A DNA stretch of 63,181 nucleotides, counting the filler, from Folioceros fuciformis (Eukaryota): assembly GCA_049999805.1 (NCBI GenBank). It is 6 parts of 6 records of this genome, joined end to end, with 100 filler letters (N's around TTAATTAATTAA, not from the genome) between each part and the next. Parts side by side here need not be neighbours in the genome. Positions count along the whole stretch, not along the records: positions 41,451 to 56,632 come from JBNGIO010005380.1; 5 more parts are not named here. One strand, 5' to 3'. Position numbers and translations under genes: made by a program. The notes under the pieces are model-generated. The model saw nothing but the letters and a program-made list of their open reading frames with translations, was not told the origin of the DNA and ran no database searches. Every line of letters starts with the position of its first letter. The first letter of the stretch is position 1. Positions 10,301 through 63,181 of the stretch are shown piece after piece.

Positions 10301-13158
10301 TTTTGTACAACCTTCTCTGTCACCCTTTGGTGCTCCAATCCTCTTGGTTTCCAAACCAGATGGAGGATGGCGGTTGTGCATAGACTATCGAGGGCTCAAT
10401 CGGGCCACAGTGAGAAACGTCTACCAGATGCCAAGGATCGACGAGATCCTCAACCAGCTGCATGGAGCCAAGCTGTTCACCAAGACTGATCTCAGATCTA
10501 GCTTTCACCAGATCCGGATCAGGTCAGGAGATGAACACAAAACTGCCTTTCGAACTCGACATGGACATTTTGAATTCAGGGTAATGCCGTTTGGTCTTAC
10601 CAATGCTCCTGCCACCTTCCAGTGTCTCATGCAGGAAGTGTTGCGACCCCTGCTGGGACATGGCGTTGAAGTCTTCCTGGATGACATTCTCATCTACACC
10701 CCTGACCCTGAAACACATCTCCAGATGGTTAGAAAGGTGCTGGACTTGCTATGGCCAACACACTGTTAGGCAAGAGAAGCAAGTGCGTCTTCATGAGAGA
10801 GAAGTGTGAATACCTGGGACATGTGATTAGTGCAGAGGGCATCCAGGTTGACACATGTAAGGTCAGCGCAATGATGAACTGGCCCTTGCCATAGGACATA
10901 ACCCAACTCAGAGGGTTCCTGGGTATGGCCGCTTTTCCTCCGCATTCTGATTGAGCACTCGGCCATGTGAGGGCTTCTACAGACGCTTTATCAAGGGATT
11001 CAGCAGGATCGTTGTTCACCTGACAGATGCCCCCTGGCATTCCGCAAACAAGCCCATCCAGTTGGGAGCCAAGGCCGTCGCAGCTTTTGAGCAGCTGAAG
11101 CAGGCCCTTGGCTTAGCGCCAATATTGGCAGTGGCAGATCCTCACATGCCATACACCATCCATACAGACGCATTAGATTATGCCATAGGGGCAGTTCTGT
11201 CCCATCAAGGAAGGGCAATCGCCTACAAAAGCAGGAAGTTGCAAGGAGCACAACTAAACTACCCAATGCATGATAAGGAGATGTTGGCCATTACACATGC
11301 CCTGAAGGTATGGCGACATTACCTCATTGGGCAGAAAGTGGTGTATCATACCGACCACCACTCCTTGTAGCATTTCTTCTCTCAGCCCAACTTGAATGCT
11401 CGGCAACGATAGTGGGCTGAAGCTATGGCAAACTACCACCTGGAGATCCAATATTTAGCAGGCTCAACTAATGTGGTTGCAGATGCCTTGAGTCGGCGTG
11501 CCTACACCCTCATGAGAACCCAAACCCAAACAATCTAGTTAGTCCGGGATGGAATTCCTCATGACCCAGTCTTGTCGAAAATGTACAGACAGCTATTGAC
11601 AGATGCACAGACAGGGGTCCCTACAGCACTTACCCAGCAATATTCACTCTAGGATGCCTGTGTGTATCAAAAGGGAAGACTGGTCATCCCTTCACAGCTC
11701 ATGGAGTTGAAACAAGCCATCCTGCATGACATGCATGATTCACCCATTTCGAGCCACCTGGGCATTGACAAGACATATGCCAAGTTCAAGGAGCACTTTC
11801 ATTGGGAAAGGATGTGCGTTGACTGCATCAAATGGGTGCACTCCTGCCAGTCCTGCCAGCAAGCCAAGCCTAGCCATCAGAAGACGTAGAGGGCTTGTTT
11901 GTACCCCTACAAATTCCAAGTGGACGATTCAGGTCAATTGCTATGGATTTCATCACTCACTTGCCACGTACCCATTCTAGAAAAGATAGTATCTGGGTGG
12001 TCACTGACAGGTTCTCCAAGGTCTGCCACTTTGTTCCCTTGACCTCCACCATCACAGCATCCAAGTTGGCTGGAGTCTTCGTTCGAGAAATCTTCAGGTT
12101 GCATGGAGCCCCAGAAGACATCGTCTCCAACCAGGATCCTAAGTTCACCTCAGGGTTCTGGAAAACATTCATGGAAACCCTAGGCATCAAGCAAAACATG
12201 TCGTCATCGTATCATCCAGAGACATATGGACAAACTGAGAAATAGAACCAGGTCCTGGAACATATGCTTCGTCACTTCACCCATGAGAAACAAACAAGGT
12301 GGGAAGAACTCCTCCCTGTATTGGAGTATGCCTACAACTCGTCGAAGCACGCAGCTACAAAAGTGGCCCCGTCCAAGCTACTGTATGGAGAAACTCCGCC
12401 ACCACCAGGCTTGTGGCCCAGCAGTCAGGAAAAGTGGCGGAGTGCAGCTGAGGTTGCGGAGGACATCTGGCATGAGGTCAAGTTGGCGAAGGAGAAACTC
12501 CTCGCTGCCCGGGACAGATCCTGTAAAATAGCCAACAAGCTTCGCCGGGCAATCTGCTATAGCGTCGGCCAACAAGTGTGGCTTCGCGTGAAGCCTCATC
12601 GCTACCCAGCTCTGATCCAGTCACGGGATAAGCTATCCTACCGGTACGTCGGGCCCTTCACAATGTCCAGGCAGATCAACCCAGCCGCATACCAGCTCGA
12701 CCTTCTTGCTGATTGGCGTCTCTGCAGGACGTTTCATGTCTACATGCTCAAGCCGGTGATCTCACGCCCGCCACAACCCTACCTGCACATCCTCCGGATC
12801 CCTCTGCCAACCAGCAACGAGAATCACACCCTTCTTCCCAGCCCAGCCCAGCTCCAGGCAACTCCTTTGCTCAGTGCCCCACTCTGGCAACTTCCGTTGT
12901 TCCAGATTGCTCTAGTTCGGAAAACCTAGCCCAGACGCCAAGTTTTGGACCTCACCAACCCCATCGTATCCTCCAGTGTCGCGATCGCTAGCTCCGTTCT
13001 CGCTGTGTGACAAACTTCCTCGTGGCCTGGACATGCGAACCCGACAGTGCTGCGACCTAGGAACCTGCAACCTTTTGCCATCACTTCCCTCACTTGCGGG
13101 CCCAGATGCAAGCTTCCCAAGCTCCCAGACAGGTCGGCCAGGAGGACCTGGCCAGCTT

Positions 13159-43299: not shown

Positions 43300-45470
43300 C
43301 GACGGCTCGTCAGAGGATTGCGGACTCTGGACGCAGGACTGTGCAGGTGTCTCATCCTCTAATGCAAAGTGCACGGACAGCCCTCTGCAGAGACATTTCA
43401 CATCATCATCAGTCGTTTTCTCCGATGCGCAGGAATGAGATCCAAAAGCACGGAGAGGAAAGTCTGGATCTGCCTTCTGCGGGGATTTTCTACGCTTTCT
43501 TCTTAGCGTGGTCATCACGCATATGACAAAGGACGAACGGTATATTGCTTTCCACTATCCATCCAGATGCAAGTGGCCACGTATGATTCGCAAAAGTTGG
43601 CTGAAAGGCTAACGTTCCTTCCGGCAAACTGCGACGGCCGCGTTCCATGATGTCGAAGAACCCACCATGTGCTGGTGACTGGTGGGGCTGGGTATGTAGG
43701 ATCACACGCTGCCCTATGTTTTACTGGAGGATGGTCATCATGTTACGGTTGTGGGGTGTGCTTGGGTCAAGCGATTTTGAAATTGTTTTCTCTTTTGAGG
43801 TGATGTGATAGCTAGGGCGGGCGCATGCTGAAGTAGATCGTGGCCGGAAACTAAATCTGTCATGCTGGTCTTGGAGGAAAATCTATCTCGTGGAAATTTA
43901 GGGGCAGTGAAGATCCTGCGAAGTCTTTTTCCAGAGCCAGGGAGATTGAAGTTTGTAGATGCAGATCTTGGAGACAGAAGAGCTATATGCTTGCCGTACA
44001 TGCTGGAACGCTCAAACAGGAGTTCCCGGAAACTTCTCGGGCGTTTTCTGTTTAGGAACGTTCGTTTCTTTTGTCACATGTAGTTCCAGATTCAGACCCT
44101 GTGCTTGGTTACCTCAGCGCTGTTGAAACAGATGAAGAAGAACATCTGTCTTCCAGGAGAACAAGTTCGATGTGCAGTTGCTTATGTGGGAGAGTGTGTG
44201 GCTGAGCACCTCCAGTACCGTCTCTCTCGTTCTTAACACAAGTCCAGGTTCTCGCCTTGCAAGAGGCAGTGCAGATCGAGAACAGGGTCTTGCACACTGA
44301 TGTCTGTATTCAAACGATTCTAGCAGGCATTACCACAACATCACAGTCAACACTGTGTTGTTGCTAGAAGCCATTAACGCCACGAATATTACCAATCTTA
44401 TGTACTCCAGAACCTGGGCAACCTACCGGAACCCAAGGAAATGCCTATAACAGAAGAGACCCCTCAAGTCAGCTTTTCACATCGGGCCATGTGATTCACG
44501 TGTTGAAGATGCTGACCAAATGTGAGCTGCTGCTAATCACAATTTTGCAGGTCCCCATTAGACCTTGTGGAAAGGCAACGCAGATGGCAGAAGACATCAT
44601 AAAAGGCTGCCCTGAACGGCAGGGTTGCAGTAACTATACTGAGGTCAGATGTGTGCAAATAGAGTGTAATATACTAATATACATTTCAACAATTGATAAA
44701 ATACAATCTCTGCATCTTTGCGCATGCCGTCTGTACCTTTTCTGCTCGAACGTGCAGATACTTCAGTGCCATCGGCTCAGACCCAAACGGTAGGTTTGGA
44801 GATGCACCAAGATCCGAGCTTCGTAGGCCCCTAGGGTCTCTGTTTCTCTGGGGCATGGTTTGATGCTGCCTTGGGTCTCATTCCAGGGCTGATGGTTGGT
44901 TTCCAGGTCACTTGTGCTCTAGCATCGTCATCGTCGACTGCTTCTCATTCAATGCTATGTGTACCCTGCAGGTGGAAGGAACCAATTATGAAACCGGGGA
45001 CGGTACATGTTTTCGCGATTACATACACGTGACGGACTTGGTCGATGCCCATGTGAAAGCCCTGTCAAAGCTGGCCAGCAAGGAAGTTCGGGTTTGCAAT
45101 GTAGGCATTGGAAAACATATTAGTACAATATATCATGGTCTAGTTTTCACAAATTGGCTTGTTTGCTTATGCCAGATACCGATCAGGTCTGATCGCTGAA
45201 ACACCCCCTGTCTGTCTTCCCAGTTGCAGGAAGGTGTGCCCGAGAATTTACAGAAGCCTGTGACGGTGCCACCGGTCAAAATACCACCGTCCTCCATGGA
45301 GAGACGAGAAGGAGACTACGATAACGTATCTAGTGACCTCCCAAAAAAAAAAAAAAGAGCTGACCTGGGTTGGACTGGAAGATATACCGACTTGCAGGAG
45401 AGTTTTGGAACTGGAAAAGAAAGGGCTCATCCCCATGGATACGAGTCTCGCCGATCACTTGGCCAACTTG
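43300..45470 (+). pseudogene. UDP-arabinose 4-epimerase (UXE/MUR4-like) unprocessed pseudogene
   Basis: Fragments HVLVTGGAGYVGSHAAL (then a frameshift), [32 protein letters not shown] and [29 protein letters not shown]. Other exons are frameshifted or degenerate, and introns are retained. Confidence 0.85.
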
Positions 45471-46933
45471 TGTTCGATTAGACATATGTATTACAGTAGA
45501 CCTTACTACTTCAGAATGGTCCTGTCAGCTTTTACAAACCACGATGCCATCCACTCATAACAAAATATTCGAAAGTTTGCAAAAGAAAACAGTTTCACCT
45601 CCTGTCATACGGCTATTCGTGATCTGGACTGTCCTCTGCCACAAGACAAAAAGACATCGCCATGCAGTGCTACCAGATGGTAGCAAATCGCCGTTTCCCG
45701 GGCATTTCTTCTTGTCCACAATGGCAGCCCGTCGTAGCCAGAAGAGGGTTGTACGTTTTCTCAGATCTGCAAGTATTATATGAGCCGTGAGTGCTCCCAA
45801 GGCGCTGGCACCTGCTTCCCACACTCTAACCACATATCCGCATAAGCAGCTTGAGAGGCAAGCAGCAGCACGGTTAGAGATATCCTCGTACGATAAGCAT
45901 TGTGATGAAGCATATGGACATCCAGGTCTGCGTCGCTGGCTGACGGCTAGCTGCAGCACAGGCTGGTGTGCACTCACTTGTCCAAGACCTAGCAACGTCA
46001 CGCATCCACTCGTCAGTCATCCGCAGAATGCAGGCGTAAGCGAGGACCACTTCTCCGTGAATGAATCATCGCAACGGAGTAGAGTATGGGGTTCTAGGTC
46101 AGGGCACGGGGTTCCTGGGAGGAGTATGAAATCGCCACCGCGGTTCGAGCTCCACCTCCTGCTCCAGCTCCAGTAGCAGCTCGAGCAAGCAAGCGGCCGT
46201 CGAACCGCCAGGTCGCGAGGTGTGGCACGTGCAAGCCTTCCTCGTCACGCGAAGCAGAGGTAGGCGGGCTGAGAGCGAATTTTTCGTTTTCTCCTTGTGA
46301 AACATCCATCTCGGGAAGCGAGGAGGCACGAATCGCCGACTGGGAAACCGGGCGCTGCCGGTGACCAGAATCGAATGTGGAAGACGACCTAAAGCAGCGT
46401 CGCCGGGAAGTGCGCTCCTCTGGAGGAGGATTGCATGCACAGCCACAATGGCTGCTGCTGCTGCGGCCGCCTTCGCTGCAGCAATCGCAAACGCAACCTC
46501 TGTTACACCAAGATGATGCTCCGTGGTCGTGTGGGCTTGCCTCCCTGCTTTTTCTGTCTGCCCTGCTACGCCGTCTTCGCTCCTCCTCTCAGGAGCAGTT
46601 TAAAACGCCAAGGAGCTGGAGGCTGTCTTTTTCCTTCTCGGGCGCCGACGGCTGTCGTTTGACTTGCCAATTCTATCTGCCCCTTTCCGTATGGGGCTCA
46701 TGTAGAGGTATACAACCTTGTGTGAGTAGTTTTCTCGGTGTATTCAGTCGTGTCGACCCACCTTGTTGGAGGGTTGCCTAGGCAAGTGCCGGGTGATCTC
46801 CTGCTGGGTCATGTGCTCTGTGAGGATGCGTATTCATGGGGCCTTTCGTAATTTGCGTGTTCCTTGACCGTGGAGTATCCTAGGAGTGAAATTGCGAGTG
46901 GTGGCAGCTGTGTGCGTGTTAGGGTAAGGTGAT

Positions 46934-49900
46934 GTGGTCATTGAGTTGTTCGCGACGGTAATTGGTTGGGCGCACGAGTTTTGCTTGCAGCGGACTGTCC
47001 CTGCCTCCTATTTCTACCGAGTAGTCAATCGCAAAGGTCCGGAGGCAGCGAGGAACGATGATTCCCGGAGGGCGAGGGGCCGGTTTTCGCTCATCTCTGA
47101 CGAGAGGTATGCTTCTGACGATGTATGGATCCTCCCTGTGCAAGCTACCGCTTTAAAGCCTGCTCTCACCGTTGCGAAATTGGACTCTCCAGGGTCCCGA
47201 GGAGTGGACGGGCCGTACGACAGGGAGGCTGGTCGAGCAAGAGAGGATCCACCTGACGCCCACGCCGCCCAGTGGCGAACTGAAGCTCAGAGGCTCGCGG
47301 CAGCGTACCTAGCGGAAGTTGCCCACGTCGATCAGCTCGGTGGTCAGGAAGTCGACTCCAGAGGCGATGATATCGATGCCACAGGGGGAGGCGTGAGGGG
47401 ATCGGAAAATTTTCTCGCATACAGAGTCTCTGAACGGGACAAACCGAAGCCCTATGTGGACAGGGATGTAATTGCGGAGGAGTCCCGTGGATTCGAGGGC
47501 CTGTCCAGAAGAGCGGGTGGAGATGATGGGCGGAAGACTGGTTTCATGCGCTTTGACGAGGCGGAGTATGGTTATGGCGACTTCAAGCTCGGCAGCAGCC
47601 AGGTTTTTGGAAAGGCTCCGTATGACGACTATGGGAGAGAGCCGAGATTTAGAGATGAAGCCAAAGAGCTTGACGTTTTGACAGGTGTCACTAGGCATGA
47701 GAGGGAACTGGCCACGTACAGCAGAGACGGGTATGATCCTCTGAGACCTTCCAGAAGAACTAGAAGGAGGGAGGGCATGGATTACGAGGGTGGAAGGAGG
47801 TACCCTGAGGATGAAAGGGTGGAGGACCTCTACTCGGTCAGAGGTGACAGTGTTTTGGGGAAGAGGAAAGTCAAGCCTTATGAAGGTGGCAGCGCCAAGG
47901 ATTATTACTCGGACAAGAGGCCAGTCTATCTCACGACTTTGGAAGCTGAACAGCTTCGACGGCCGAAGGGTGACGCTGATTTGGTTCTCGAGGAATATGA
48001 TTTTAAGGAGTTCGGAGGAGTGAAGAACGACATGCTGGTGGAAGGCCAGGACATGGTGGGTGGGTTGGTGGAACATGTCAGCAGGGGTGTACAAGACCTG
48101 GCATCACGGAGAGAGCGGTCTTTGAAGTCTGAAGCCTACGACCGCAGGTCTGCCCTTAGTGAAACGGTCAGTGATCGGGACTCAGACCGTCACTTCTCTT
48201 CCCGTGGAAGAAGAGGGAGGAGGCCACCTCCAAGAGGGCATTACAGTGGGGACTACCATGATGGTAGCGATTCTCGCCATGGCGGTTCACCCAGGACTCA
48301 TGCCCGAGGACCATCATACGTGGAAGAGAGGTTGGGCGGAAAGGGCGATTATCGGTATACACCCGCACTATTTGTTCGTGATCCTTCCAATGGTCACCGT
48401 TACAAGTCCCATGAGTCTGCCATGGATAAGGGCTATGAAGCAGCCTTGGAGCACGATAGGATACAGTCCCCCGCTGGTTATGAGCTGGGAAATGGTGGTT
48501 CATGGAGGGGTCGCAGTGGTGATGGTGGTGGCAGGGGCCACGATATGATGGAAGTGAGTGGACGGGATAAGCTTGCATTTTTGCACCATCCTGATAGCAC
48601 CTCGTTCCTTCCTTCTTCTAGGCACCATAGTGGTCCTCGATCTAGCTTTTCGAAGTACAGGCCTGACTATTATGAAAGAGACAGCTGGGCACCAACTTTC
48701 AGGGGGAGTAGGCGGGGCCGGAGAGGATCCCGGCACTGGGGGGGCGTTTCTCAGGCTGACGAACTTTTTCGCATGCATAACATGAAGGCAAGAAAGTATG
48801 CTGGTGAGGACTTTGCAGAGCCTCGATATAGAAGTTGGAGTCACAAAAGACCGCATAGAAGTCCCTCACGTTCAGGTGACCACAAAGCAAGTAGTAAAGA
48901 CTCGGATTGGGACGCAGATGCCGCAGATGGTGCTGTAGAGAAGCCAGATGGTGCTGTAGAGAAGCCAGATGGTGATGTTACCCCACTAAGGGATTCATCA
49001 CCCGGAGCGAATGGGGCGTTAGAACCTTCAGGTGTGGATGACGGATCATTGGGTGTCGTCATGGACTCGTCAGCTGTGACTGGAACTAGTTCCTTTCTTT
49101 CTCTATCGACGTCAGCCCATCATGAAATAAGTCCGCCTGTTCCTGAGCCAAACCCCGTCTCTTCTGATTTCAATCCACCCGTCCCTGATATTAATTCTCC
49201 TGTTCTTGAAGCAGATGATGGTGTTCCTGAGACACTTCCTTCCGTTTCTCAATCAAATCCATCTGTGTCCGGGGAGAGTCCTGCTGTTCCTGAGACGGAA
49301 TTCACTCTGTCAAATGTGACTGCTCCTGAGCCATTGGCTTCTGAGACAATGTCTGCTGTCGACAAGGTGGATGATATTATTCCGGAAATCAAACCCTCCC
49401 TTGGGCTCAGTGCTACTGCTCTTGAACGAGCATCAGCTGTTGATGAGTCTTTTCTCGCCTTTTCTCAACCAGATTGTGTTATCCTTCCATCAACCTGTTC
49501 AAAGTCTACATCTACCTCCCCTGCACCAGAGGTAGCCTCAACTGTTCCGGATTTAGTTCCATGTGCACTTGACTCAGGATCACCTATTTCTGAACGAACC
49601 AACTCCCCGGCTGAATCGGTTGCCACTTTTACTGAGTTAAAGCCAATTCTTCCCTCTTTCGTTGTTGGAACGAGGGTGGGAATCTTTCATGCGGACCAGC
49701 GGGACCCAGAGAGTGGAGCCGTGGTGTGTATCACCAGTCGGATGGAGGTTGTTGGAAGTGAGGGTACTGTCACGAGCACAGGGGAAGAAGCAAGCAGGCT
49801 GCAAGATATGGTAATGGCATCGGAGGGCAAACCAGCAGATGAACATCCAAATGAAGGCCTACTAGATGTCCAGACGAATAGCTTGGATGAATCAAGAGAG

Positions 49901-51654
49901 AAAACAGAAGCATACCAGCTTCAAGAGGATGCAGCGTTTCAGCTGTACACAAAGTTGTTTAAGGAAAGCACGGATTGGCGGAAGATGTATGAGGATCAGC
50001 GCCACTCCGGCAGTTTCGGCTGTGATGTCTGTCTCAGCTCTGGTATCATGTAAGTGTCTTGGCGGAAGTTCCTGCAAAACTGGCTTTAGATTTTGCAAGA
50101 AGGCTCCAGATTGTCATTTTTCTGCGATGACCTGCATTGTTGCTTTGTGCTCTCTGACTCTTACTGTTTGCAGAATCAAATACGCCAACCTTGCAAGCCT
50201 CATGGAGCACACGAACAGTTTTTCGAACTCCAATGAGCTTGCTGATCATCGGGGTTATGCTCGGGCAGTTTCTCACTTCCTGGAGTTGAGTTCATCTCCC
50301 CCGGAGGCAATGGAGCCTTGCAGTGCGGAGCCGAAGCAGGAGTTAAACTCGACAGCCGATGCTGCACTGACTCACCAGGTACTAGTAGGTTCTATTTGAT
50401 TGATTGCTTCTAGGTGCACAGAGCTTGTTTCAGCATCCTACTTGCCGCACGTGACATTGACCTTCAATCTTGCAGGCCACAGAAGATACAGAAACTGTAG
50501 CGTCAAGGGCCTTGGAGGACACCCAAGTTGAGGAGGTAACAGCCTCAGGTTCGCTCTCACATTAAGCCTGTCTTCTTTCGGTTGGGTAGGTCAGACAGTT
50601 TTCACCCCTGCATTGAGTGCTAATTGAGGGGTTTCTGGCAACGGGATAGTTTAGCCTTGGTAAACGGTCACGTCCAGCTGGAAACTAGGCCGTAGGTGCC
50701 GTTATGCTTACCCATGTTCCACGATATCAAGATCCTTTAGGACAGGAGTTCCCAGACCACAAATCCAAGGGTTTCCTGCTGTTTGATCTCCAGCCTCATC
50801 AGCTCCACTAACCTCTAAAGGATAGAATCTTCAACTGTCGAGCTACTAATATTTGGCGGAGGTCCTATTGGAGTGAATCCCTTATCTCGCTAAGGATAGT
50901 AATAACTGACGGAGGTCCTTAACTGATGGGATCCCCTAAGTTTGTCCCGCTATAGATGCCCAGCTAGACTCATCAGAAAGCGCTGCCTCTTCAAACCTTT
51001 GTTGAACTTTTCGGAGAGGTTAGCCTTGGAAAATTGGTAACGTCTAGCTTGGAGCTAGGCTGTAGGTGTCTTGACGCTTACCCATGGTCGTCGAGATCAA
51101 GATTCTTTAGGACAGGAGTTTTCAGACCACAAATGCAAGGGTTCCCTGCTGTTTGATCTCCACCATCAGCTCCACTGACGTCTAGATGATGGAAGCCTTT
51201 ATCTTCAACTGTCGAGCCAGTAATATCTGCCGGACGTCTCATCGGAATGAATTCCTAATCCCCCTAAGGATCCTAAGGATAGGAAACATCTCGTGGAGGT
51301 TCCTATCGGAGGAAATCCCTTAAGCTTGCCTCTCCCTAAGGATGCCCAGCCAGACTATTCAGAAAACACTGCCTCCTTTAACCTTTGTTGAACTTTTCGG
51401 CCTGGCCCTTCCGATACCTTTCAGCTGTATGGATCTTTCCCCTCCAAACTTGTCGAAACGTCTTCCTTAACCTTACCTTCCCTCCAGCAGATCCAAGGTG
51501 CTGCATTTGGATGAGACCTCTCTCCTTTGGGCCTATCGACGTTGCCATTATCACTTTATTTCTTTCCCTCGAATGACCGAGACGTTGCTTTTTGGCAGTT
51601 GATGGAGATCACGTAAAAGGTGTCAGTCACGTGTTATCCCCACTGAAGGATTAA
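46934..51654 (+). CDS. Large intrinsically disordered R/D/G/S-rich protein with a C-terminal CxxC..H..H putative zinc-binding domain; start uncertain
   Basis: A ~1040-codon open exon runs to 50049, followed by in-phase GT-AG exons 50174-50378, 50476-50548 and 51599-51654. Motif: AAFQLYTKLF..RKMYE..GSFGCDVC..LASLMEH..ADHRGYARAV. The ORF-track start is GTG; the first in-frame ATG is at 47546. Confidence 0.7.
50651..51400. repeat. ~370-bp tandem direct duplication inside an intron
   Basis: Copies ~50651-51013 and ~51020-51400 share TTAGCCTTGG.., TTTAGGACAGGAGTT..CAGACCACAAAT and AACCTTTGTTGAACTTTTCGG. Confidence 0.85.
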
Positions 51655-52360
51655 GTAGGAGCAGTGTTGACCAAAAATCAGACGGTGCTATGTAGGACCT
51701 GCTAGTAGTTCATTGGATTATATCAAGGCCCCAGCCAACTGGGCCCTTGAACGACAAATTTCCTGTCGTGCTAATTATCCTGAACGGAACTACCTAAGAC
51801 ACTTTAAATTTATGGCGACGCATCACTGTGTTACCTACAACACCTCTCACACGCGTGAAGGAGAAGTGGTCTTGAACGATAAGCCCGTCTGCTCCAGTGT
51901 AAAGAGTCCATGGACTGCTCGCTGCTGCCGATAACGATTTGCATTTGTCAGTCTCCCCGAGTGCATCTCACCGCCACCGCCCCGTAGGTCGTATGCGAGA
52001 TCTTGAAATGCATGCCCTGAATTGGATTTGAGGAAGAAGGGAATACTTTATCTTCCACGTCATAGGAGTACCGTCATGTTGTGAGAGGGAATCACGGAGT
52101 GTCGACTTGGCAGTCACTTGGCTTCCATCTTGCACTCGTCCACACAAGCCTCCATCACTTGTAGCCTTGGCGAGTCTTGATCCCTCGCTGCTGACAGCCA
52201 GAGGCTTCTCAACTCCGCTTCTATTTCCGACGTGACCAGCACCGAGCACTTGCGGTGAGCATCTGCGTCCCTGGTCCTGGTTCTGACTGAGTCTGTTGAT
52301 TCTTCTGAGGGCGTAACGGTTGCGTTCTTGCGCTGGACGATATCGCGTGCACTTAGGACC

Positions 52361-52929
52361 ATGACGGGCTCTGGATCACCCACAGCGGCCCACAGGAAGG
52401 GCAGAAAGGGCGATGGTTCTACCCGTCTGGACAAGCACTCAGGTGCGGTTGCTTATGCAGCTTTGTACCACTACTTATAGCTTTTCTTTGGTGGAGAGAG
52501 AGCCTTGGCTAATTCGTTGTGCTACTTACTTGTTCAGGAACAGGGAGGCTGGGCGGAGCGAAGAAAGGTACAGGACTTAGGCATCTCGCTCAGCTCAGAA
52601 ACGAAATGCGGTGCGGGTTTTGATGATGCGTGACATGTGCAGGCGGTGCAGGAGGCAGCTACACATGGGGTGTTCCTGGCCAAGAGTTTCTGGATGGTGA
52701 CGTCTTGGCAATCGATCGGAGCGACCCGAACTACCTGGACGACGACGAGCTTGCAGCCACTGTACACGAGGAGTACGTTGCCTTCACCCTCAGCAAGCTG
52801 GGTGCGAGATGGCTCTCTTACGGGTGATCAAAGAAACTACTTGTGTCCTTATGTTGTCTTTATTTTGGCAGGTCTGTTGAAAAGGTCGAAGATGAAGCTG
52901 AGCCTGTTGTCAAAGTAGTCGAAGACTAA
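52361..52929 (+). CDS. 99-aa miniprotein consisting of a PDCD4-N/SERBP1-like ribosome-binding motif without MA3 domains (4 exons)
   Basis: Exons 52361-52442, 52538-52567, 52643-52772 and 52872-52929 have GT-AG introns of 95/75/99 bp and splice in frame (300 nt). Product: MTGSGSPTAAHRKGRKGDGSTRLDKHSGTGRLGGAKKGGAGGSYTWGVPGQEFLDGDVLAIDRSDPNYLDDDELAATVHEESVEKVEDEAEPVVKVVED. Confidence 0.8.
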
Positions 52930-53608
52930 GCTCTCCTTGCGAAAACTGTTGATTTGAGTGAAGTCACATGGAGAAGCTAGGGACTTCGCTAGGGACTTCT
53001 CTCCCTGTACATACCTTGGCATTGGACCAGCCGCGTAGTTGGACGACGATGTTGACTGGATTTTGGCTCTTTCTTGAGACAGTTGGATGTCACAACGTCA
53101 TCTATGTAGTGGGCAAATAGATGGGCAGTTCACTCAGTTAATTTGCCTAATTACTGGCATGTTTGATTGCACACACATACGAGCATAGAGAATTCTGCTC
53201 GTCATACACACAAATCATACAGTAGTGAAGCGTGAAAATCTTGCTACAGAATTCACAACGACCGATCCTGCATGTTACACAGGAAGAAAGGTTTCCCTAA
53301 CATCTGCAGCAGCTTAATCAGACAAAGCTACGTGCTAGTTCCCCCCTAACAGAAGATTTGTAACACCTCACAAGACGACAGGACCTGTAACACCTGACCG
53401 TCCAAAAATCGATGAGCCATGGGAGAGACTCTCAACCTCGGGCACTAAGGATTTTGCAACTATCCGCAGATGTCCAGAGCGCTCGGGAAAAAACCGATTG
53501 TCAAATGACGTGCACACGTACCATACTGTAGGGAACAGACCATCGCACACAACAAAGCCAAAATGCCGAGGTTCTCCTCTACACATCACATCACATAACG
53601 TGCAGAGG

Positions 53609-56600
53609 TCAGTCAGGAAACCCACGCGCTGCCAAAGCTGCTTCGAAACGCTTGAATGAAAGAGGACGCAACTCCGTGCTCGTATCATCTTGAGGGGCTG
53701 GATAGTAATCCGACCGGAGCTGAAAGTCACGCAAATTGGTGCACTGTTTCAGCATGAAGAGAAAGTGTTCATGCACCGTGCCATGAACAAACAGCTTTCT
53801 TAGAGTGACACACTCCGACATCAGCCCCACTGCCGGAAGGGAAAGACCTCGGTGATTGAGATCTTTGTCAACTGGCGGACTGTACTTCAACTCCATCAGC
53901 CCCAGCTGCCTCAAATCTGTTAAGAGAAACCTTTCCCACTGGCTCAGGTCATGTCGACCCTGCGGGGCACTCAAGGCATAGCCCACTGCGTCACTGAAAT
54001 CCAGCTCGAGCTTTGAGAGGGAACGGTAGCGAGCCAGAGACCCCAAACCCCAGGAATTTGCCGGTGGCTTATACAGCTCTTTTACCTCGCCTTCTGCCCT
54101 GATATTGATCTCCTCTAAGACAGGACAAGAGCTGAGGCCCATGGCAGAGAGGTACTTGAGCAATGTCCAGGGTGTCGTCCACAAGGACAGAGACCTTAAG
54201 GAGCTCCACGTGCAGGGAGGTGGCTTCCGCCTTCGAGGAGTGGAATACTGAGTGCCACTCCAACCCATGGACAACACATCAGAAACATTGAGTGGATGTG
54301 TCGAATCATGATTTAGCTTGCCTCTTCCCGTGCCCGCCAGAGAATTGGAAGCTGTCTTATGGGCTGGAAACTGAGAAGTAGCCGACCAACCAGACGGTAG
54401 CTGCATCCAACTCTCTGCATGGTTCATTCCCGAAAGCTGATTACTGAACTGTGAGCACGAAACGCCATCTGGTGTGCTGCTAACATAAGCAGATTGCTGG
54501 CCACCGGCATCACTGAAGCAGCCACGGCCTTTCGTTCGAGAAGCAGAATAGGAATGATGCGAATCATAAAGGCCTGGAACTCCCATAACAACAAAAGAGT
54601 CATCATCATCTAGAGATCTCCTTATCCTTTTACTAGGAACCTGCATCCCTCCTTCCCCTGGATCAAAACCTATGGTCACAAAGTCACTGGCGTCTCCCGC
54701 ATCAAAGCCCATCGTCACAAAACCTGTATCTTGCTCTCCAGCATCGAAACCCAGCGTAACGAAGTCACTGTCCACGCAACCCATCCGGTCTGTAGACTTG
54801 TAACACCCATGCCCTGGTGCATGACTCGGTTGTGTGACGTGGAAGCGTGGCGGTGCAGGATATGGTTCTGGTGCATGATACCCAACAGCCACGAAATCAG
54901 TTCCTTCGCCAACGGAATCAAAGAAACCTGCACCTAGGGACGGTTCCGAGCCCCGCTTTCTGGACTTGCTCTTCCTGCTACTCAAGGCGGGGTGTCGTTC
55001 ATGACCAGAGTTCTTGCTCATAGCGTCCTGAAACAGATCTTCAGCACTCATGTTGAGTATGTCAGCAACGCTCAACTCACCAGACTGCCCAGATGTGCCT
55101 ACAGCTGCGGCTTCTTCGCGCGCTACAATTTCCTCATCCCAGACGCAGTCTATGCTGAGAGTGCGAATCACGGGCTGTATTGGCTCCAGGGCTCGCAAGA
55201 CCTGGGCACAGTTGAGCTGCCCGCAGCTGGTCACCTCCACATCCCGAAGAGTCGGGGCCAGGCACTTTACGCAGTTTGCAAGCCCATCGTAGGATATGCG
55301 CCCAACGCTCCGCAAATGCAGTTCCTGAAGACGTGTACAACCCTTGGCAATGGCAGACAAGGACCTGTCCACAAGGTCTGCACAATCCTTGATGGACAAC
55401 TTAACCAGCTGCTTGCAAAGAGCAAGTCCATCTGGCTCCGGTCCCTTGCACACTCCGTGAAAGTGGCTCAACCTAAGAACTCTCAGATTCTTGCAGTGGC
55501 TCTGTAGGGACTCCAGCGCAGGACCTGCATCCCTGACATTCTGAGCCAGGAAGAAGACCAGCTCTTCGAGGTGAGGAAGAGACTTGAACATTTCCTGCAG
55601 TCCAGTGCGAGTGATGTTGGCATCCTCCGATGCAATACTGTCTGTAACTCGACCTCGAGACGGATCCCACGCATTAGTGTCCACTAGATGGAGCACCCGG
55701 AGCTTTGTACAGGTTGTACCAAGGCCCATCAGGGCCTCGTCCCCGACGGGATCCACAAATCGTGGGTCGAAATCGCACAACACAAAAAATTCCTCCAAAT
55801 TCTTACAGCACTGGGTGATAGTCCGAAGCTCCTGCGACCGGAAGCCCTCTGGCGAAATCTTCAAGAGATTCAAACTCCGAAGGTTGCTAGCACAAGAGCC
55901 TTCCACAGCCAAGGCAGGGGCCACATCCTCCGTCCAGCAGTAAAACTTAGAAAGGTCCAGGCTGTTGAGTTTGGGGCAATTACTGAGCAAGCACACGAAC
56001 TCGCTCCCAGCTTCCAGGGCCGACTCAGGGCCGGCCGGCCTCTGATGCCATCTAACGAGCCGCACAGACTCCACGGAGGGCCACAAACAGGCCACCATCT
56101 GCACATCGTGCACACTCTTGGCATAGATAGTCACCTCCTTCACCAGGGGAAACGCTTGCAAGATGAGCCGGGCAAATCGATCCCCCTGCCTGATAGCCAT
56201 GTAGATAGAGTAACCCCAGGGAGAGACCAGCGACAAGTCAAGGCAAGTCACTTGATTGAAGCACATGGGAAGGGAGGCGAGATCAACAATGTTACCCCGC
56301 AAAGTCAAACTAGTCCTCGTCAGCCGCTCCAGCAGGTACCAATCACGGCACACAAGGGACATGCAATTCCTGGCGCGCACGTCAGTGACGCAGTTGAAAA
56401 TGCTGATGAGAATCGGCTCAGGGATATCAGAGATGTGCGTGCCATGCAGCCCGCACTTGCAACCAGGCGGATGCCTTGCATGCCTCTGCAACTCGGGCCC
56501 CAAGAACGGAGCGTGCAGCACAGGCGGGGGCTCCATGAGGAATGCTCCCGCACCGGACCCCGGGAAGTGCCCCCAGCCCGGTGCCGCAGCCGTGGACTGC

Positions 56601-56623
56601 AAAACCCCGCCCCCGAAATCCAT
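53609..56623 (-). CDS. MAX2: F-box/LRR protein MAX2/D3 (karrikin/KL-strigolactone signalling) with a ~300-aa internal insertion
   Basis: F-box ISDIPEPIL..RARNCMSLVC..LERLTRTSLTLRGN, LDLSLVSPWG, LVRWHQRP, LDLSKFYCWTED, and C-terminal LRKLFVHGTVHEHF..DYYPAPQDDTSTELR. Intronless. The frame is open to the adjacent gap, so the true start may lie upstream. Confidence 0.95.
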   Translation of the reverse strand: MDFGGGVLQSTAAAPGWGHFPGSGAGAFLMEPPPVLHAPFLGPELQRHARHPPGCKCGLHGTHISDIPEPILISIFNCVTDVRARNCMSLVCRDWYLLERLTRTSLTLRGNIVDLASLPMCFNQVTCLDLSLVSPWGYSIYMAIRQGDRFARLILQAFPLVKEVTIYAKSVHDVQMVACLWPSVESVRLVRWHQRPAGPESALEAGSEFVCLLSNCPKLNSLDLSKFYCWTEDVAPALAVEGSCASNLRSLNLLKISPEGFRSQELRTITQCCKNLEEFFVLCDFDPRFVDPVGDEALMGLGTTCTKLRVLHLVDTNAWDPSRGRVTDSIASEDANITRTGLQEMFKSLPHLEELVFFLAQNVRDAGPALESLQSHCKNLRVLRLSHFHGVCKGPEPDGLALCKQLVKLSIKDCADLVDRSLSAIAKGCTRLQELHLRSVGRISYDGLANCVKCLAPTLRDVEVTSCGQLNCAQVLRALEPIQPVIRTLSIDCVWDEEIVAREEAAAVGTSGQSGELSVADILNMSAEDLFQDAMSKNSGHERHPALSSRKSKSRKRGSEPSLGAGFFDSVGEGTDFVAVGYHAPEPYPAPPRFHVTQPSHAPGHGCYKSTDRMGCVDSDFVTLGFDAGEQDTGFVTMGFDAGDASDFVTIGFDPGEGGMQVPSKRIRRSLDDDDSFVVMGVPGLYDSHHSYSASRTKGRGCFSDAGGQQSAYVSSTPDGVSCSQFSNQLSGMNHAESWMQLPSGWSATSQFPAHKTASNSLAGTGRGKLNHDSTHPLNVSDVLSMGWSGTQYSTPRRRKPPPCTWSSLRSLSLWTTPWTLLKYLSAMGLSSCPVLEEINIRAEGEVKELYKPPANSWGLGSLARYRSLSKLELDFSDAVGYALSAPQGRHDLSQWERFLLTDLRQLGLMELKYSPPVDKDLNHRGLSLPAVGLMSECVTLRKLFVHGTVHEHFLFMLKQCTNLRDFQLRSDYYPAPQDDTSTELRPLSFKRFEAALAARGFPD

Positions 56624-56835
56624 CAACCCTTGNNNNNNNNNNNNNNNNNNNNNNNNNNNNNNNNNNNNNNNNNNNNTTAATTAATTAANNNNNNNNNNNN
56701 NNNNNNNNNNNNNNNNNNNNNNNNNNNNNNNNTGTGGGGAGGAAGGAGGAGGAGCGGCGTAGCATGGGTGGAGGGGCAGGATGCAGGACGAAGCAAGGAT
56801 GAGGGGGAGGAGGGAGAGCAAGGAGGTGAAAGAGA

Positions 56836-58149
56836 ATGAGCTGGAAGGGACGGCCTGGGGCCCGGAGCAGCAGCAGCAGCGGCAGCTCCAGAGGTGGAAG
56901 CGATGGCGGCAGCACCAGCTGCGAGGAGAAGGGGAAGGAGGAGACAGCGGAAGGAGGCGGGCACGCCTCCGCCTTCTCTTTAAAGGAGGCTGAGCCGTTG
57001 ATGCGCATGCGGCCGGTGGCAGCGTTGGAGAGACGGCGGGCAGTGTTCGGGGAGGACGCCTTGGCAGGGGCGACTCTCGGAGCGATGGCACACACTCTGG
57101 TGGCGCCCCTGGAGCGCGCAAAGCTGGTTCTGCAGACGCAGGAGGGGAACTCGGTCATCCGGGCCGGCTCGCAGGCACGATACAAGGGCCTCGTGGATTG
57201 CATCGTGCGCGTGGCTCGGGACGAGGGAGTTTTATCGCTCTGGCGCGGTAACGGGACCAGCGTTATTCGCCATTACCCCTCCCTTGGCCTCAATTTCGCC
57301 TTCAAGGTCTGTATGTATGTGCTGAGTCCGCAGCTCGTTGCTTTCGCATGTCAGTTGCTCTGTCTTTTAGTTTTGTGGATGCAAATGGATCTGTTCCACT
57401 AGCAATCCTGTTGAAGGCTTGTTGATTCGTGGATCCATCCTTGGGAATTGATCTTTGCTTGCAAGCAAACCAAGCAAGCTGACATTGTGTTCAACGGGGC
57501 TATGCAGGACCTTTATCGCAACATGCTGATGTCGAGACGGGAGGGGCAGGGCCGGCCAGGTAGCCTGGCCACGGCTCCAGCAAATTTCTTGGCTGGAGCA
57601 GCAGCCGGATGCAGCGCGCTGCCCTTCGTTTACCCGCTGGACATTGCACACACCAGGCTGGCGACCGACCTCGGTAATGGCCAGGCGCGGCAGTTCAAGG
57701 GAATTTGTCACTTTTTGGCCACCGTTTACCGGATTGAGGGCATCCGGGGCGTCTACCGGGGCCTTCCAGCCTCCCTGCACGGCATTGTGGTACACAGGAG
57801 CATCTACTTCGGGGCGTTCGACACGGCTAAGGATTACCTCAGCGGCCAGGAGCAGGTCAACTTGGCGTTTTGGAAGAAATGGTTGGTGGCTCAGGCTACC
57901 ACATCCGCGGCTGGCCTTATCTCCTATCCTCTGGACACGGTTAGACACCGCATGATGATGCAGGCGGGCTTGGAGCCGCATCGGAGAGTGTTTCAGAGCA
58001 CCATGGATTGCTGGAGGCTGATCTACAGGATGGAAGGGCTGGGCTCCTTCTACAGGGGCTTGGGCTCCAAGATGATCAGATGCACGGGGTCAGCCATCGT
58101 CCTTGTGCTCTACGACGAGCTCAAGTACCTTCTGCACTGGCGCTCATGA
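56836..58149 (+). CDS. Mitochondrial-carrier-family ADP/ATP carrier-like protein (PM-ANT/At5g56450-like), 2 exons
   Basis: Exons 56836-57306 and 57508-58149. Motifs APLERAKLVLQTQE, LWRGNGTSVIRHYPS..NFAFKDLYR, YPLDIAHTRLATD and YPLDTVRHRMMMQ. Confidence 0.9.
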
Positions 58150-58993: not shown

Positions 58994-60763
58994 TCATGTC
59001 TCCTCGGTGCGGACCTGTTGATACACATGGCTTTTGATGATAATCTTGCCGACTCGAAATCCTGGAACTACCATAAAACCCACCTTGGGCAGGAATGTGG
59101 ATTTCTCATGCTCGTCGGCATCATCATCCACCACATTCACCATGTAAGTCGAGTCGAAATCTGCTCCACTCCTGACGCGAAAGATCCTTGCATGTGGCTC
59201 GAACGACAGGGCCAGCCTCTGCAAAAGCCACACCCACGTAGCAAACAGACAGAAGCTCTTAACGTAAGGGTGATCCGGTTGCTGGAGTAAATGCTGAAGG
59301 TGTGTCGGCGTGATGCTGGCTATCTTCTGGTCAAGAAACCGTAAAAACCGGGCTTCACTGCTTGATCTTTCATTCTTCGCCCGGAGCTCTGATATGTACT
59401 GGAAAGTGGGTCTGCTCTTGAGCTCCTCGAACTCCTTGAACCGCAGTGCTTGAGCCTCCTCCAAATCTAATGTGGGGCAGAAATATCCTTGGTTCGTGTC
59501 AAACCCATCCACTTCGAAACCACGGAACATGGCCGTGGAGATGGCATACGCAGTGGAATACTTGGCTTCGTGCGATTTTCTCGCGAACCGAATGCTCTTG
59601 ACCACTTCAATGTTGTCACCGTCATCTTCCGGAAGCTGGTAGCTTATCCTAGCTTCTTTATGCGCAACGTCATAGTCTCTGCAAAACCTCCTCAGCTTAT
59701 CCATCAGTTTTATAACACAGTCATCAAGCATAGGAGGCGACGCCGACGTGTCCAGGTAAGACCCGATCTGTTGGGACTTCGCTTTCTCCTGCTCAAACAT
59801 GTTCAGATGCTGGTTAAGCTTCTGGATCTGCATATCCTTCCCACGCAAACTGGCTGCCATCTCCTCTCGAATCTTATCTATCTCATTGCATGCCCGGCGG
59901 TAATTCGAGATCAAATTTTCCAAATCTTTTTCATGACGAATTTTCAGATCCGCGGTGTCTGCCAACAACGCACCCACCGTCTGGACATAGTGGTCGTAAT
60001 CCACGGGCTTGCCCTCAAGCTCCTCCGGAAATTTCGGAACCAGATCTTCCACCTTCTGTTTCGGAAGAAGCTTCCTCTGCACAAGGAAATTCCTCAGTTT
60101 CCCGTGGCACTCGAAAACCTTGAGAATCCATGTTTCACATGCCCCTCCCTTCTCTCCAATTTCGACAGCCATCTGCTGATAACGAGCGGCAAACCCATCG
60201 GCTAGGGAGAGCAATTCCTGGTACTGCCTTGAGGGAGCTGTGGAAAGTGAACCCTCGATTCTCGGATCCCCAATCTCAGACATTTCCTGGCTCCCTCGCT
60301 TTTCGACATCCCGCGTTTGCTGGGTTGGGTCCAACTCGTTCGTGACCAGTCCACCGCGCTGGTCAGGGAGCACCACACGCTGATCAGGGCTTGAACGTTC
60401 TTCCTCCCTCCCCGCAGCCTGGTCGTTGAGGACAAGCTGCGAGCTGGACCCGCCCGCATCGGTTGACACACCTGATCCATCTGGCTTCACCTTGTCAGTG
60501 GACATCAAACTCATGACCCCCTCCACCTTCTTCTCACCTGCTCTCGGGGCCTCTTCACCATCCAAGATCACAAACGGCTGCAGCTTCTGCTGCCAAGCCA
60601 TAGATTCCGACTTCGCCGCGCCCGCAATCCGTCTCAGGTCCTTGAAGTGATGTTCAAAACACGCAACCCACCGAAGCAGCTCCTGGAACAACCGCAGCAG
60701 CTCCACCTCCGTTGGAGCTTGAGGTGCCTCTCTACCCCGAAACCATGACGTAGACAGGCTCAT
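58994..60763 (-). CDS. IRK-interacting protein/GIL1-like coiled-coil protein
   Basis: Long ORF ending VWLLQRLALSFEP..IFRV..G..FDSTYM..V..KVGFMVVPGFRVG..IIKSHVY, typical of the IRKI/GIL1 C-terminal domain. An upstream exon is possible. Confidence 0.8.
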   Translation of the reverse strand: MSLSTSWFRGREAPQAPTEVELLRLFQELLRWVACFEHHFKDLRRIAGAAKSESMAWQQKLQPFVILDGEEAPRAGEKKVEGVMSLMSTDKVKPDGSGVSTDAGGSSSQLVLNDQAAGREEERSSPDQRVVLPDQRGGLVTNELDPTQQTRDVEKRGSQEMSEIGDPRIEGSLSTAPSRQYQELLSLADGFAARYQQMAVEIGEKGGACETWILKVFECHGKLRNFLVQRKLLPKQKVEDLVPKFPEELEGKPVDYDHYVQTVGALLADTADLKIRHEKDLENLISNYRRACNEIDKIREEMAASLRGKDMQIQKLNQHLNMFEQEKAKSQQIGSYLDTSASPPMLDDCVIKLMDKLRRFCRDYDVAHKEARISYQLPEDDGDNIEVVKSIRFARKSHEAKYSTAYAISTAMFRGFEVDGFDTNQGYFCPTLDLEEAQALRFKEFEELKSRPTFQYISELRAKNERSSSEARFLRFLDQKIASITPTHLQHLLQQPDHPYVKSFCLFATWVWLLQRLALSFEPHARIFRVRSGADFDSTYMVNVVDDDADEHEKSTFLPKVGFMVVPGFRVGKIIIKSHVYQQVRTEET

Positions 60764-61861
60764 GGTGGTCCGTTGACTCTGAGGCGGAGAAAGCTGCACA
60801 CGACGAAGAGAAACTTACCACATTGCCCGCGCTCTTCTGAAGGACATCCGTATCACCCAAGCTCCCATCCTCCAGTGAGCAAGACACGAATCAACTTGTA
60901 CCTCATCCGAGCTAGCATTGGCTAATGTCTTCCGAGAACCAGACAACATTCTGCTTCACCGACCACGATTTCACCAATCTCCTGTTACGAAGTTACCCCT
61001 TCCTGATCAGAAACCTCTTCCACACTGATGTCTAAGCTAAGCACCAAATCTAAGACGTAGGAACAAGTTGCGGGTGAAAGCCATATGCTACACAGTACAA
61101 TCAATCACAGCACAGGTCTTCGTGACAGAACGCCAGTGAAGAAACGCCGGCTAACATGTGGCCAGCCTCTCCCGACACTTGAGCCAGCAACCCCCTGCGC
61201 CTCGCTCAGCCTGCTTGAAGCAAGGACGCAGCACAAACGCTGGACTGAAATCGGGATAGCTCCCCCGGCGCAGGCCGCAGTATCCCTCCGCTTTCCTTTC
61301 CTCATCCTCGATCGGATCGGGAGTCCGACTTTGACAGAATCCAACACTGTACGCTTCCGCGTCACTGCAGCAACACGCGGATTTCCTTTCGTATTCTATT
61401 GGTTTACTGTCGTCACAACTTGGCTCCCTGGAGCCTAGTGGCACTTGAGCCCGAACGAGTTGAAAAGTGGGATATCGATTCGTTTCACAAAAAATCTTTC
61501 TCATTACCCGAAGGTCGAAGTGGTTGATGTTTTGCTTTGAAGCGTCGTCATCTTCACTACAGACATTCACGACCTTCGATCTCGAGGGAAACAGCTAGGT
61601 TTTTATATCGTGGAAACGAAACCACACGACTCAAGATTCCTCCAAGCAGCTTGGTAGCAGCGTCCAGGGCAGTGGAGGGCCTGTTACAACGGCCTAGGTG
61701 TCTCAAGAAGATGGTGCCAAAGTTCATAGAAGAAGATGCTCTCCCACACGGATCGAAGGCTNNNNNNNNNNNNNNNNNNNNNNNNNNNNNNNNNNNNNNN
61801 NNNNNTTAATTAATTAANNNNNNNNNNNNNNNNNNNNNNNNNNNNNNNNNNNNNNNNNNNN

Positions 61862-62811
61862 GCATGTGCAGAGATTATGGAAAACCACATGAAGACATCC
61901 GGTTTCCCTACCCTGTTGAACACATCCATCGCCTCCTTTAGCCTACCTCCACATGCATACATGCGCAAGATATGGTTCCCCAAATATGCATTCGACTCGT
62001 ACCCAAGTTTGACTGTGAGATCATGAACTCGTCGCCCCACCACCAAATCCTTCTTAGCTGTACAGAGTTTTAACACTGTGTAAAACAGAGACTGAGAAAC
62101 GCCAGAGCCTGACTGCACCAGAGATTCCAGGGCTCCAACGGCCTCAGAAAGCTTCCCCTTGTGACATAACATGCTCACGGTTGCAGCAGTTACGACGCCC
62201 GTTTCCAATTCTGCACGCCTGCCAGATCCACGCTTATACAGAGAGCTGCACTCGAAAGAAGAGACTCCATGGGCCATTGGATGTGGAAGTGCTGGGTTTC
62301 TTGCACTGCTGCCCCTGGAGCCCATTTCACCACCTGTACGCCTTCCAGGTTCAGGGTTATCTGGAGAGCTCAAGTTGGAAGCAGAGGAACCGAGACCCAT
62401 CTGCATATCCAAGGAGACGAGCTGCTCATCAACCCATGCTGGCTTTAACCTGTTGTCCAACCAGAGCACCTCCCCGGACCTCTTACGCCGGAAGTCAGGG
62501 GAACGGGAGCTCTTCTTGTCTCGTCTGTTATCCCACCACATGGTAGGGTCCAGAAAAAGTTGTTGCCACAAGTGCTCCTGCTGCTCCTGGCAACTACCAG
62601 CATCGTCGGAAAGCCCGTCCCTGCCCACACACGTTCTCGCTCTCGGACGTGGAAGTGCTGGGTTCCTGACACTGCTGCACCTGGAGGCTCTATTTGCAAA
62701 GGGATCACTCCCGAAGCTGAGGTGAGCGGGGGTTCCTGGTAGAGTCCTTGTACACACACCAATTCCAATTTGTTGGGTCCACAACAGGTCCGGTTGCCAT
62801 ACTGTGGCCAT
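61862..62811 (-). CDS. PLS-class PPR protein N-terminus with an OSB-type PDF motif; 3' part lost in gap
   Basis: ATG at 62811 and a transit-peptide-like start. LWQQLFLDPTMWWDNRRDKKSSRSPDFRRKRSGEVLWLDNRLKPAWV is followed in frame by PLS repeats homologous to the N-terminal repeats of the 28903 PPR. Confidence 0.88.
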
Positions 62812-63181
62812 CTTTCAGGGACCGCTGTCGGAAGATGACTCTCACAAAAGTCTCGTTTAGGCAGATCCCCGGCCGGTTACACTGTACGTACGTATGTATG
62901 ACCACAACAGCTTAAAGGGGTGAACCGTGAGCGGTTCTGCCTGAAGGGGTGAGCCGTCCTGTAACACCTGTAGGCAAGCTGTCGGACTGGTCCTTTAAAC
63001 CACTCGACCATGTGACGGATATTCGGGAGTAGCTTTATGTTGCAGTTTAGATATACAAAACAGTTAATTGCTTATCAGCTGCCATAAGAAAAACGATCAT
63101 TTCATTTAACGCTTGTCAACGTTAAGTTCATGCTAAGCTACATACCCCAAGATCCATGGTACCACGGTCTCTGTTTCTGAT

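Follow-up and report, generated by a model that had tools for sequence, protein, structure and literature searches.

Within a 63,181-nucleotide stretch of Folioceros fuciformis DNA (assembly GCA_049999805.1; hereafter the window, meaning the whole stretch that was analysed), an intronless gene encodes an F-box leucine-rich repeat (LRR) protein of the MAX2/D3 type that carries a 309-residue loop with five similar short units. MAX2 serves as the single F-box hub of karrikin/KAI2 ligand (KL) and strigolactone signalling. PMC5490202 describes it as very conservatively evolving. The reading proposed here, with moderate confidence, is a lineage-specific multivalent array of linear motifs, a putative docking module whose partner would read the F, V, G, F and D of each unit. 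No description of a MAX2 insertion of this type, or of an interaction between MAX2 and ATG8, was found in the literature searched.

The MAX2 gene and its fold

The coding sequence occupies 53609..56626 on the minus strand, as do all MAX2 features given below, and comprises 1005 codons and a stop. The first ATG is codon 2 of the open reading frame, whose 5' end adjoins a run of N at 56633-56676, so that the actual start codon may be a little upstream of the 56626 end. A protein search with the window protein returned 110 proteins, nearly all MAX2 orthologues; the named MAX2 matches, Petunia among them, share 42-57% identity with it (Physcomitrium 53%, Marchantia 55%, Sphagnum 57%). Pfam recognizes the COI1/MAX2-type F-box (PF18511, F-box_5) at residues 68-105 (E = 2.2e-09; 37.2 bits, cut-off 25.5), within an F-box that spans residues 65-105 (56312..56434); its LRR matches are weak. 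Among solved chains, MAX2 9kkx_C (E = 1.6e-180) and rice D3 5hyw_A (E = 1.7e-139) match the protein in two blocks, one on each side of the loop.

An AlphaFold2 (AF2) model, built from a 23-row alignment of MAX2 proteins, has a mean predicted local distance difference test (pLDDT) score of 65.6 and a predicted template modelling score of 0.63, with a confident solenoid of 20 LRR strands followed by a C-terminal helix (residues 988-1000). LRR1-14 (residues 106-512; 55091..56311) end in a strand at 489-493 and a helix at 498-512 and mostly reach pLDDT values of 80-95. LRR15-20 and the C-terminal helix occupy residues 807-1005 (53612..54208), with GFPD at the end. The insertion sits in the model after strand 14 and its helix and before strand 15 (812-817). 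Most of the 23 aligned orthologues end in G-[FYW]-P-D, and the final aspartate, D1005, is invariant across all 23. With the solved 9kkx_C, rice D3 (5hyw, 6bro) and the Physcomitrium, Marchantia and Sphagnum orthologues, the window protein shares the F-box_5, the 20-LRR solenoid and a C-terminal helix ending in D, and known MAX2/D3 proteins have a variable loop at the same site. Every feature tested fits the family, and the gene is a genuine, expressed MAX2/D3 orthologue.

Just N-terminal of the F-box, residues 51-66 (56429-56476) read R-H-P-P-G-C-x-C-x-L-H-G-T-H both in the window protein and in its closest relative, a 961-residue MAX2 designated P0002. None of the other 21 MAX2 sequences aligned has this C-x-C..H..H arrangement, which may form a small metal-binding knuckle.

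The loop and its five units

The variable loop, delimited by sequence, model and alignment, extends between DCVWD (residues 493-497) and W807 and comprises residues 498-806 (54209..55135). An initial annotation of this DNA had described an in-frame insertion of about 305 residues at 54215-55135, which agrees closely with the measured 309; the coding frame contains no stop within the loop, and the other two frames contain 14 and 23. Serine (13.9%), glycine (11.7%) and aspartate (7.4%) are prominent in its composition, and its codon usage is markedly unlike that of the folded part. Nearly all of residues 513-803 fall below a pLDDT of 50 and lack secondary structure in the model; these approximately 290 residues are predicted to be intrinsically disordered, a call that is reasonable rather than strong. 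Near the start of the loop lies a conserved island, SVADILNMSAEDLF (residues 519-532; 55031..55072), which is nearly identical in P0002.

Five related units follow. Unit 1, TDFVAVGYHAP (residues 576-586; 54869..54901), has an F-V-x-V core of the canonical ATG8-interacting motif (AIM) or GABARAP interaction motif (GIM) type, represented by F-V-K-V in P0002. Unit 2, SDFVTLGFDAG (620-630; 54737..54769), unit 3, TGFVTMGFDAG (634-644; 54695..54727), and unit 4, SDFVTIGFDPG (647-657; 54656..54688), recur with a period of 13-14 residues, and unit 5, DSFVVMGVPGL (676-686; 54569..54601), is a variant preceded by DDD, whose following G-V-P is kept in P0002. Their phenylalanines are residues 578, 622, 636, 649 and 678, and the spacing overall ranges from 13 to 44 residues. 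The five motif strings listed in the initial annotation are all present, at nucleotides 54569-54907; the five copies are real, and the repeat unit proved longer than first read, extending into G-F-D. The pattern F-V-x-x-G occurs five times in the loop, a number reached by none of 20,000 shuffles of the loop (maximum three), and a six-frame scan of the window found the unit motif in the five MAX2 copies only.

Three basic patches, likewise noticed at the outset, are interspersed with the units: RKSKSRKR (residues 551-558; 54953..54976), which resembles a nuclear localization signal (NLS) and is weakly conserved in P0002; KRIRR (666-670; 54617..54631), between units 4 and 5, with KRAK at the equivalent place in P0002; and RRRK (798-801; 54224..54235), which is not conserved there. 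By their sequence they are candidate nuclear import signals, of which the middle one alone is kept in P0002.

Transcription of the insertion

Whether the insertion is exonic or spliced out, a point that the initial annotation had left to be checked, is answered by contigs of a sequencing run, X1. This run and the DNA runs are assigned to one organism; its RNA label is a guess, and its RNA nature is inferred from its spliced joints. Over 44000-56620 the X1 contigs contain ten joints, nine of them GT..AG and one CT..AC (the opposite-strand equivalent), and the DNA run X2 has none of the ten. Record 5 of X1 (4741 nt) contains four GT..AG joints (52253/52356, 52438/52534, 52565/52641 and 52772/52872) that belong to the convergent plus-strand neighbour, and is then continuous over 52872-56620 and for 87 nt beyond, with no differing letter, no gap and no joint in the MAX2 coding sequence. 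Because this record is spliced next door and unbroken through MAX2, the entire coding sequence, loop included, is present in sequence derived from spliced RNA, and the loop is exonic. Contigs omit rare forms, and a minor loop-skipping isoform could escape X1. A further run, X4 (organism B), covers only 43 nt (50506-50548), with MAX2 outside its span.

At 51596-53609, record 5 also joins the plus-strand gene, with its four small introns (52253-52872), to the 3' end of MAX2; as both stand on one contig, the convergent transcripts overlap downstream of the MAX2 stop. At 50545-51596, X1 contains two forms, one in which 1050 nt are skipped (GT..AG) and another, a contig of 1107 nt, reading through (50519-51625); the two could reflect intron retention, a nested transcript or unspliced material.

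Distribution of the array

A phmmer search with residues 560-700 against 1.84 billion representative proteins gave three matches, of which one, P0002, is real. The other two, P0112 and P0113, were rejected as carriers; they are repeat-rich, bear no resemblance to an F-box or LRR protein and were judged spurious from their sequence. Word-indexed searches with the loop likewise retrieved P0002 alone among proteins of similar length and no shorter protein sharing the loop, and a search of the ESM Atlas with residues 560-700 gave no usable match. P0002 is 56-61% identical overall to the window protein, and its 277-residue loop contains five units in the same order, so that the conservation to be looked for in relatives was found in the sole relative detected. 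In all other MAX2 sequences among the 23 aligned, the DFV..GFD array is absent.

Loop length in these 23 sequences ranges from 54 residues in P0099, of the Arabidopsis type, to the 309 of the window protein, the longest. This spread shows that the connection between LRR14 and LRR15 is generally prone to changes in length. The solved and Arabidopsis-type loops are about 55 residues long (positions 510-565 in 9kkx_C), which is the length that the initial annotation had given for Arabidopsis, and its mention of insertions in moss MAX2 is borne out by the alignment, with loops of 138-167 residues in six of seven moss-clade proteins.

In a quick maximum-likelihood tree, midpoint-rooted, with support from the Shimodaira-Hasegawa-like approximate likelihood ratio test (SH-aLRT) and with Selaginella and Isoetes unsampled, the window protein groups with P0002 at a support of 100. 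Their clade lies outside a moss and liverwort clade (support 88) and apart from Diphasiastrum, the fern clade and seed plants. By its sequence relationships, the window MAX2 belongs to a deep-branching non-seed land plant of neither the moss nor the liverwort clade. A hornwort is the most probable source, in keeping with the compact genes of the window, whose introns measure 75-125 nt, and with its large intronless PPR-DYW genes.

Signs of selection on the units

Across the ten units of the window protein and P0002 together, F at position 0, V at +1 and G at +4 are invariant (10/10 each). F or Y occupies +5 in eight units, D occupies +6 in seven, and S or T stands at -2 in eight; position -1 is D in seven units, S in two and G in one, and position -2 is S in six, T in two and D in two. 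At +3 the residues of units 1-5 are V, L, M, I and M in the window protein, as against V, A, M, P and R in P0002, giving the orthologous pairs V/V, L/A, M/M, I/P and M/R, with L, I or V in only 4/10 units. To judge from these residues, the constrained code is [S/T]-D-F-V-x-x-G-F-D rather than F-x-x-[LIV], with D-S-F-V-x-x-G-V-P as the variant in the last unit.

At the DNA level, Tandem Repeats Finder detected no tandem array at 54100-55300. A diverged 36-nt family of three copies, 69-75% identical over 36 nt, corresponds to the three central units, and an origin by recent DNA slippage was rejected on these grounds. When codons for the same residue are compared between units of the window, 33 of 51 pairs differ, and the glycine at +4 is written with four codons in five units. 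These comparisons indicate that the units are old at the DNA level. The loop as a whole shows 29% identity to that of P0002 (97 of 333 positions) with 26% gaps; invariant unit residues amid such decay, together with differing codons, argue for purifying selection at the amino-acid level on S/T-D-F-V-x-x-G-F-D.

The same observations bear on the proposal that the repeats are a functionless, neutral relic of old slippage or duplication in a permissive loop. Such a relic would suit the variation in loop length from 54 to 309 residues across 23 land-plant sequences, the low GC content at third codon positions (GC3) in the loop, the existence of two known carriers, and the divergence of spacing and flanks between the window protein and P0002. 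It fits poorly with three positions that remain invariant in all ten units of a loop otherwise decayed to 29% identity, with identical residues specified by different codons, and with unit number and order preserved in both species, and is considered improbable.

ATG8 and ATG11 as possible partners

The initial annotation proposed that the units form a multivalent ATG8 or ATG11/FIP200 docking module. In terms of known motifs, they would be AIMs, also termed LC3-interacting regions (LIRs), for ATG8, or FIP200-interacting regions (FIRs) for the ATG11/FIP200 claw, with MAX2 acting as a multivalent autophagy adaptor or cargo. According to PMC7615515, the LIR core has an aromatic residue at 0 and L, I or V at +3; Ala, Pro and Met are too small for the second hydrophobic pocket (HP2), Met occurring there in very few LIRs; the GIM consensus, of the GABARAP/Atg8 type, is (W/F)-(V/I)-X-V; and the FIR consensus, [DEST]-[DEST]-[FWYILV]-x-x-[ILV], makes the same demand at +3. 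Like the motifs of these classes, the units lie in a setting predicted to be disordered and have acidic or S/T residues beside an aromatic at 0, with V at +1; unlike them, they have an unconserved +3 position and an additional conserved G-F-D downstream.

Several observations are consistent with this proposal. An aromatic-x-x-[LIV] AIM core is found in three of the five units of the window protein (those with V, L and I at +3; the other two have M, as the initial annotation had counted) and in one of five in P0002, and the FIR consensus is matched by the same units. D, S or T stands at -1 or -2 in all ten, which suits both LIR and FIR consensus, V at +1 is as invariant as a GIM would have it, and the units lie in a predicted disordered, accessible region (nearly all of 513-803 scoring less than 50 in pLDDT). 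Unit 1 reads F-V-x-V in both species, conforming to the GIM consensus, and is the sole canonical AIM in both. Non-canonical ATG8 motifs are also known to occur as arrays within disordered regions: PMC10183829 and PMC7515635 describe several non-canonical ATG8/UFM1 motifs ("shuffled AIMs") in a single disordered region of C53. The likeness is that a protein of signalling or quality control has, in one disordered stretch, several copies of a short non-canonical aromatic motif; the motif sequence and protein family differ.

The pattern of constraint points elsewhere. The HP2 residue is L, I or V in just four of ten units and drifts to A, P and R in P0002, so that of the two pocket residues only F(0) is conserved between the orthologues, and the array is for that reason not classed as a member of the AIM family. 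The AIM model leaves the invariant G at +4 and the conserved F at +5 and D at +6 unexplained. The loop shows no enrichment of the pattern [FWY]xx[LIV] (five observed, shuffle mean 2.97, with 3249 of 20,000 shuffles reaching five), and in a literature search the titles and abstract beginnings of the papers listed gave no direct link between MAX2 and ATG8. If the partner recognizes F at 0, V at +1, G at +4, F at +5 and D at +6 but disregards +3, it would probably not bind in the canonical two-pocket ATG8 mode. What stands of the initial proposal is therefore an exonic, disordered and conserved repeated motif; ATG8 or ATG11 as its partner does not follow, given the +3 residues and the unexplained G-F-D. 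The autophagy explanation as a whole is regarded as unlikely, and putative ATG8/ATG11 docking, if it occurs, would proceed mostly through unit 1, itself a doubtful prospect. Distinctly doubtful, too, is the fuller scenario in which the array, or at least unit 1, would dock ATG8 or the ATG11 claw and wire SKP1-cullin-F-box (SCF)-MAX2 to selective autophagy, either as an adaptor for SMXL-type substrates or as cargo with controlled turnover, the loop between LRR14 and LRR15 being an evolvable platform for lineage-specific effector motifs, with DFV..GFD in this lineage, EAR-like DLN in ferns and conifers and basic patches in mosses.

A proposed multivalent docking array

The initial annotation had allowed that the repeats could be another short linear motif, and this is the reading favoured here. 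A docking array draws on the identity of the gene, the exonic status of its loop, the predicted disorder, the statistical significance of the repeats, their pattern of conservation and their position in the fold. From these we infer that the units serve as docking sites, that they act multivalently and that consequences of the following kind may result. The connection between LRR14 and LRR15 has grown into a tether of about 290 residues, predicted to be disordered, with NLS-like basic patches interspersed. In PMC12639087, the receptor sits on LRR17-20 and the D2 domain of SMAX1 is wedged between the loops of LRR17 and LRR18. The tether leaves the solenoid after LRR14, two repeats before LRR17-20, and could reach the receptor and substrate end. 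Five similar units 13-44 residues apart would be well placed to bind, by avidity, a partner that is oligomeric or has several sites, and a partner captured in this manner might be brought to SCF-MAX2, or SCF-MAX2 might be brought to the partner's location. Fern-clade and moss-clade MAX2 proteins, which bear conserved motifs of their own in the same loop, provide a precedent.

Certain points weigh against the docking array. Conservation is known from two sequences, with no third carrier in the libraries searched; the spacing of the units is not conserved, the gap between units 1 and 2 being 44 residues here and 14 in P0002; and the disorder predicted by AF2 rests on an alignment in which just two rows span the loop. 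GC3 is 0.447 in the loop compared with 0.644 in the remaining coding sequence, which could mean weaker constraint. Docking is deduced from sequence and model with a hypothetical partner, and the match of some units to the AIM and FIR consensus leaves room for a partly ATG8-type function.

Two further explanations are speculative and find no support in the AF2 model. In the first, the aromatics of the units would act as stickers, folding when bound or associating with one another, for instance as beta-hairpins (F-V-x-x / G / F-D), to give condensates or oligomers. Regularly placed aromatics in a spacer rich in G, S and D and the 13-14-residue period of units 2-4 would accord with this; the model shows neither structure nor contact there (pLDDT 24-43), the ESM Atlas search brought no usable match, and the idea is held to be very improbable. 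The second supposes mimicry of modules linked to MAX2: G-F-D might act as an internal decoy for the conserved terminal G-F-P-D tail by which the C-terminal helix is docked, or G-V-P as a COP1-type VP peptide. The G-[FYW]-P-D terminus that most orthologues among the 23 share, the G-V-P after unit 5 in both species and the known links of MAX2 to photomorphogenesis lend it some plausibility, which is countered by the different residue order (G-F-D-P versus G-F-P-D), by a loop that is not docked on the solenoid in the model, and by the composition of the loop, from which about one V-P dipeptide is estimated to arise by chance in 309 residues. Mimicry accordingly appears far-fetched.

That an insertion of 309 residues, predicted to be disordered, is transcribed and bears an array under selection indicates that one surface loop of MAX2, two repeats away from the receptor and substrate site, is free to gain docking functions. 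If a partner were found, it would reveal that in an early-diverging land plant the KAI2-MAX2 pathway has an input or output specific to the lineage; if none exists, the array would amount to an ordinary lineage-specific loop expansion.

Motifs in the same loop of other plants

Lineage-specific motifs also occur in the LRR14-15 loop elsewhere. An [LF]DLN sequence resembling the ethylene-responsive element binding factor-associated amphiphilic repression (EAR) motif is present in seven of eight fern-clade MAX2 proteins and in that of the conifer Cryptomeria (the set comprising P0013, P0015, P0016, P0022, P0023, P0058, P0043 and P0017). EAR-like DLN motifs recruit TOPLESS, and if the [LF]DLN sequence is real, the F-box protein itself would bear a co-repressor motif. 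A K/R-rich basic patch, H-R-L-V..K-R-R-R, is found in the loop of six of seven moss-clade proteins (P0003, P0006, P0007, P0010, P0011 and P0014). These fern/Cryptomeria and moss-clade loops share with the window protein the insertion site and the presence of short conserved motifs; they differ in motif sequence and in having single copies instead of a five-unit array. The lineage-specific loop motifs of ferns and mosses were not found in print. Should a partner of the window array be identified, comparison with the EAR-like motif of ferns and the basic patch of mosses would offer a testable picture of hormone-pathway rewiring. Sphagnum P0004 (705 residues) lacks most of the loop present in the near-identical P0003 (878 residues), probably because one gene model treats loop sequence as an intron.

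Other features of the window

In the window, MAX2 stands head-to-head with a mitochondrial carrier gene of at least two exons (56836-58149, plus strand), beyond which lies a gene with a GIL1/IRKI C-terminal domain (58994-60814, minus strand). Two large, uninterrupted pentatricopeptide repeat (PPR) genes are present on the plus strand, one with a terminal DYW deaminase domain (87-2447) and one of 1484 residues with an E motif (28903-33357), along with a weak PPR fragment (61864-62814, minus strand). Expansion of PPR-DYW genes is linked with hornworts or lycophytes. Pieces of a reverse transcriptase (RVT_1) and of a Tf2-type SH3 domain (9948-10769 and 12246-12929, plus strand) point to a retroelement remnant. 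The window contains 13 runs of N, ten of which are arranged in five pairs, each with 12 bases between two runs of 44 N, such as 56633-56676 and 56689-56732; these pairs, one of which conceals the sequence directly upstream of the MAX2 start, look more like masking than like assembly gaps.

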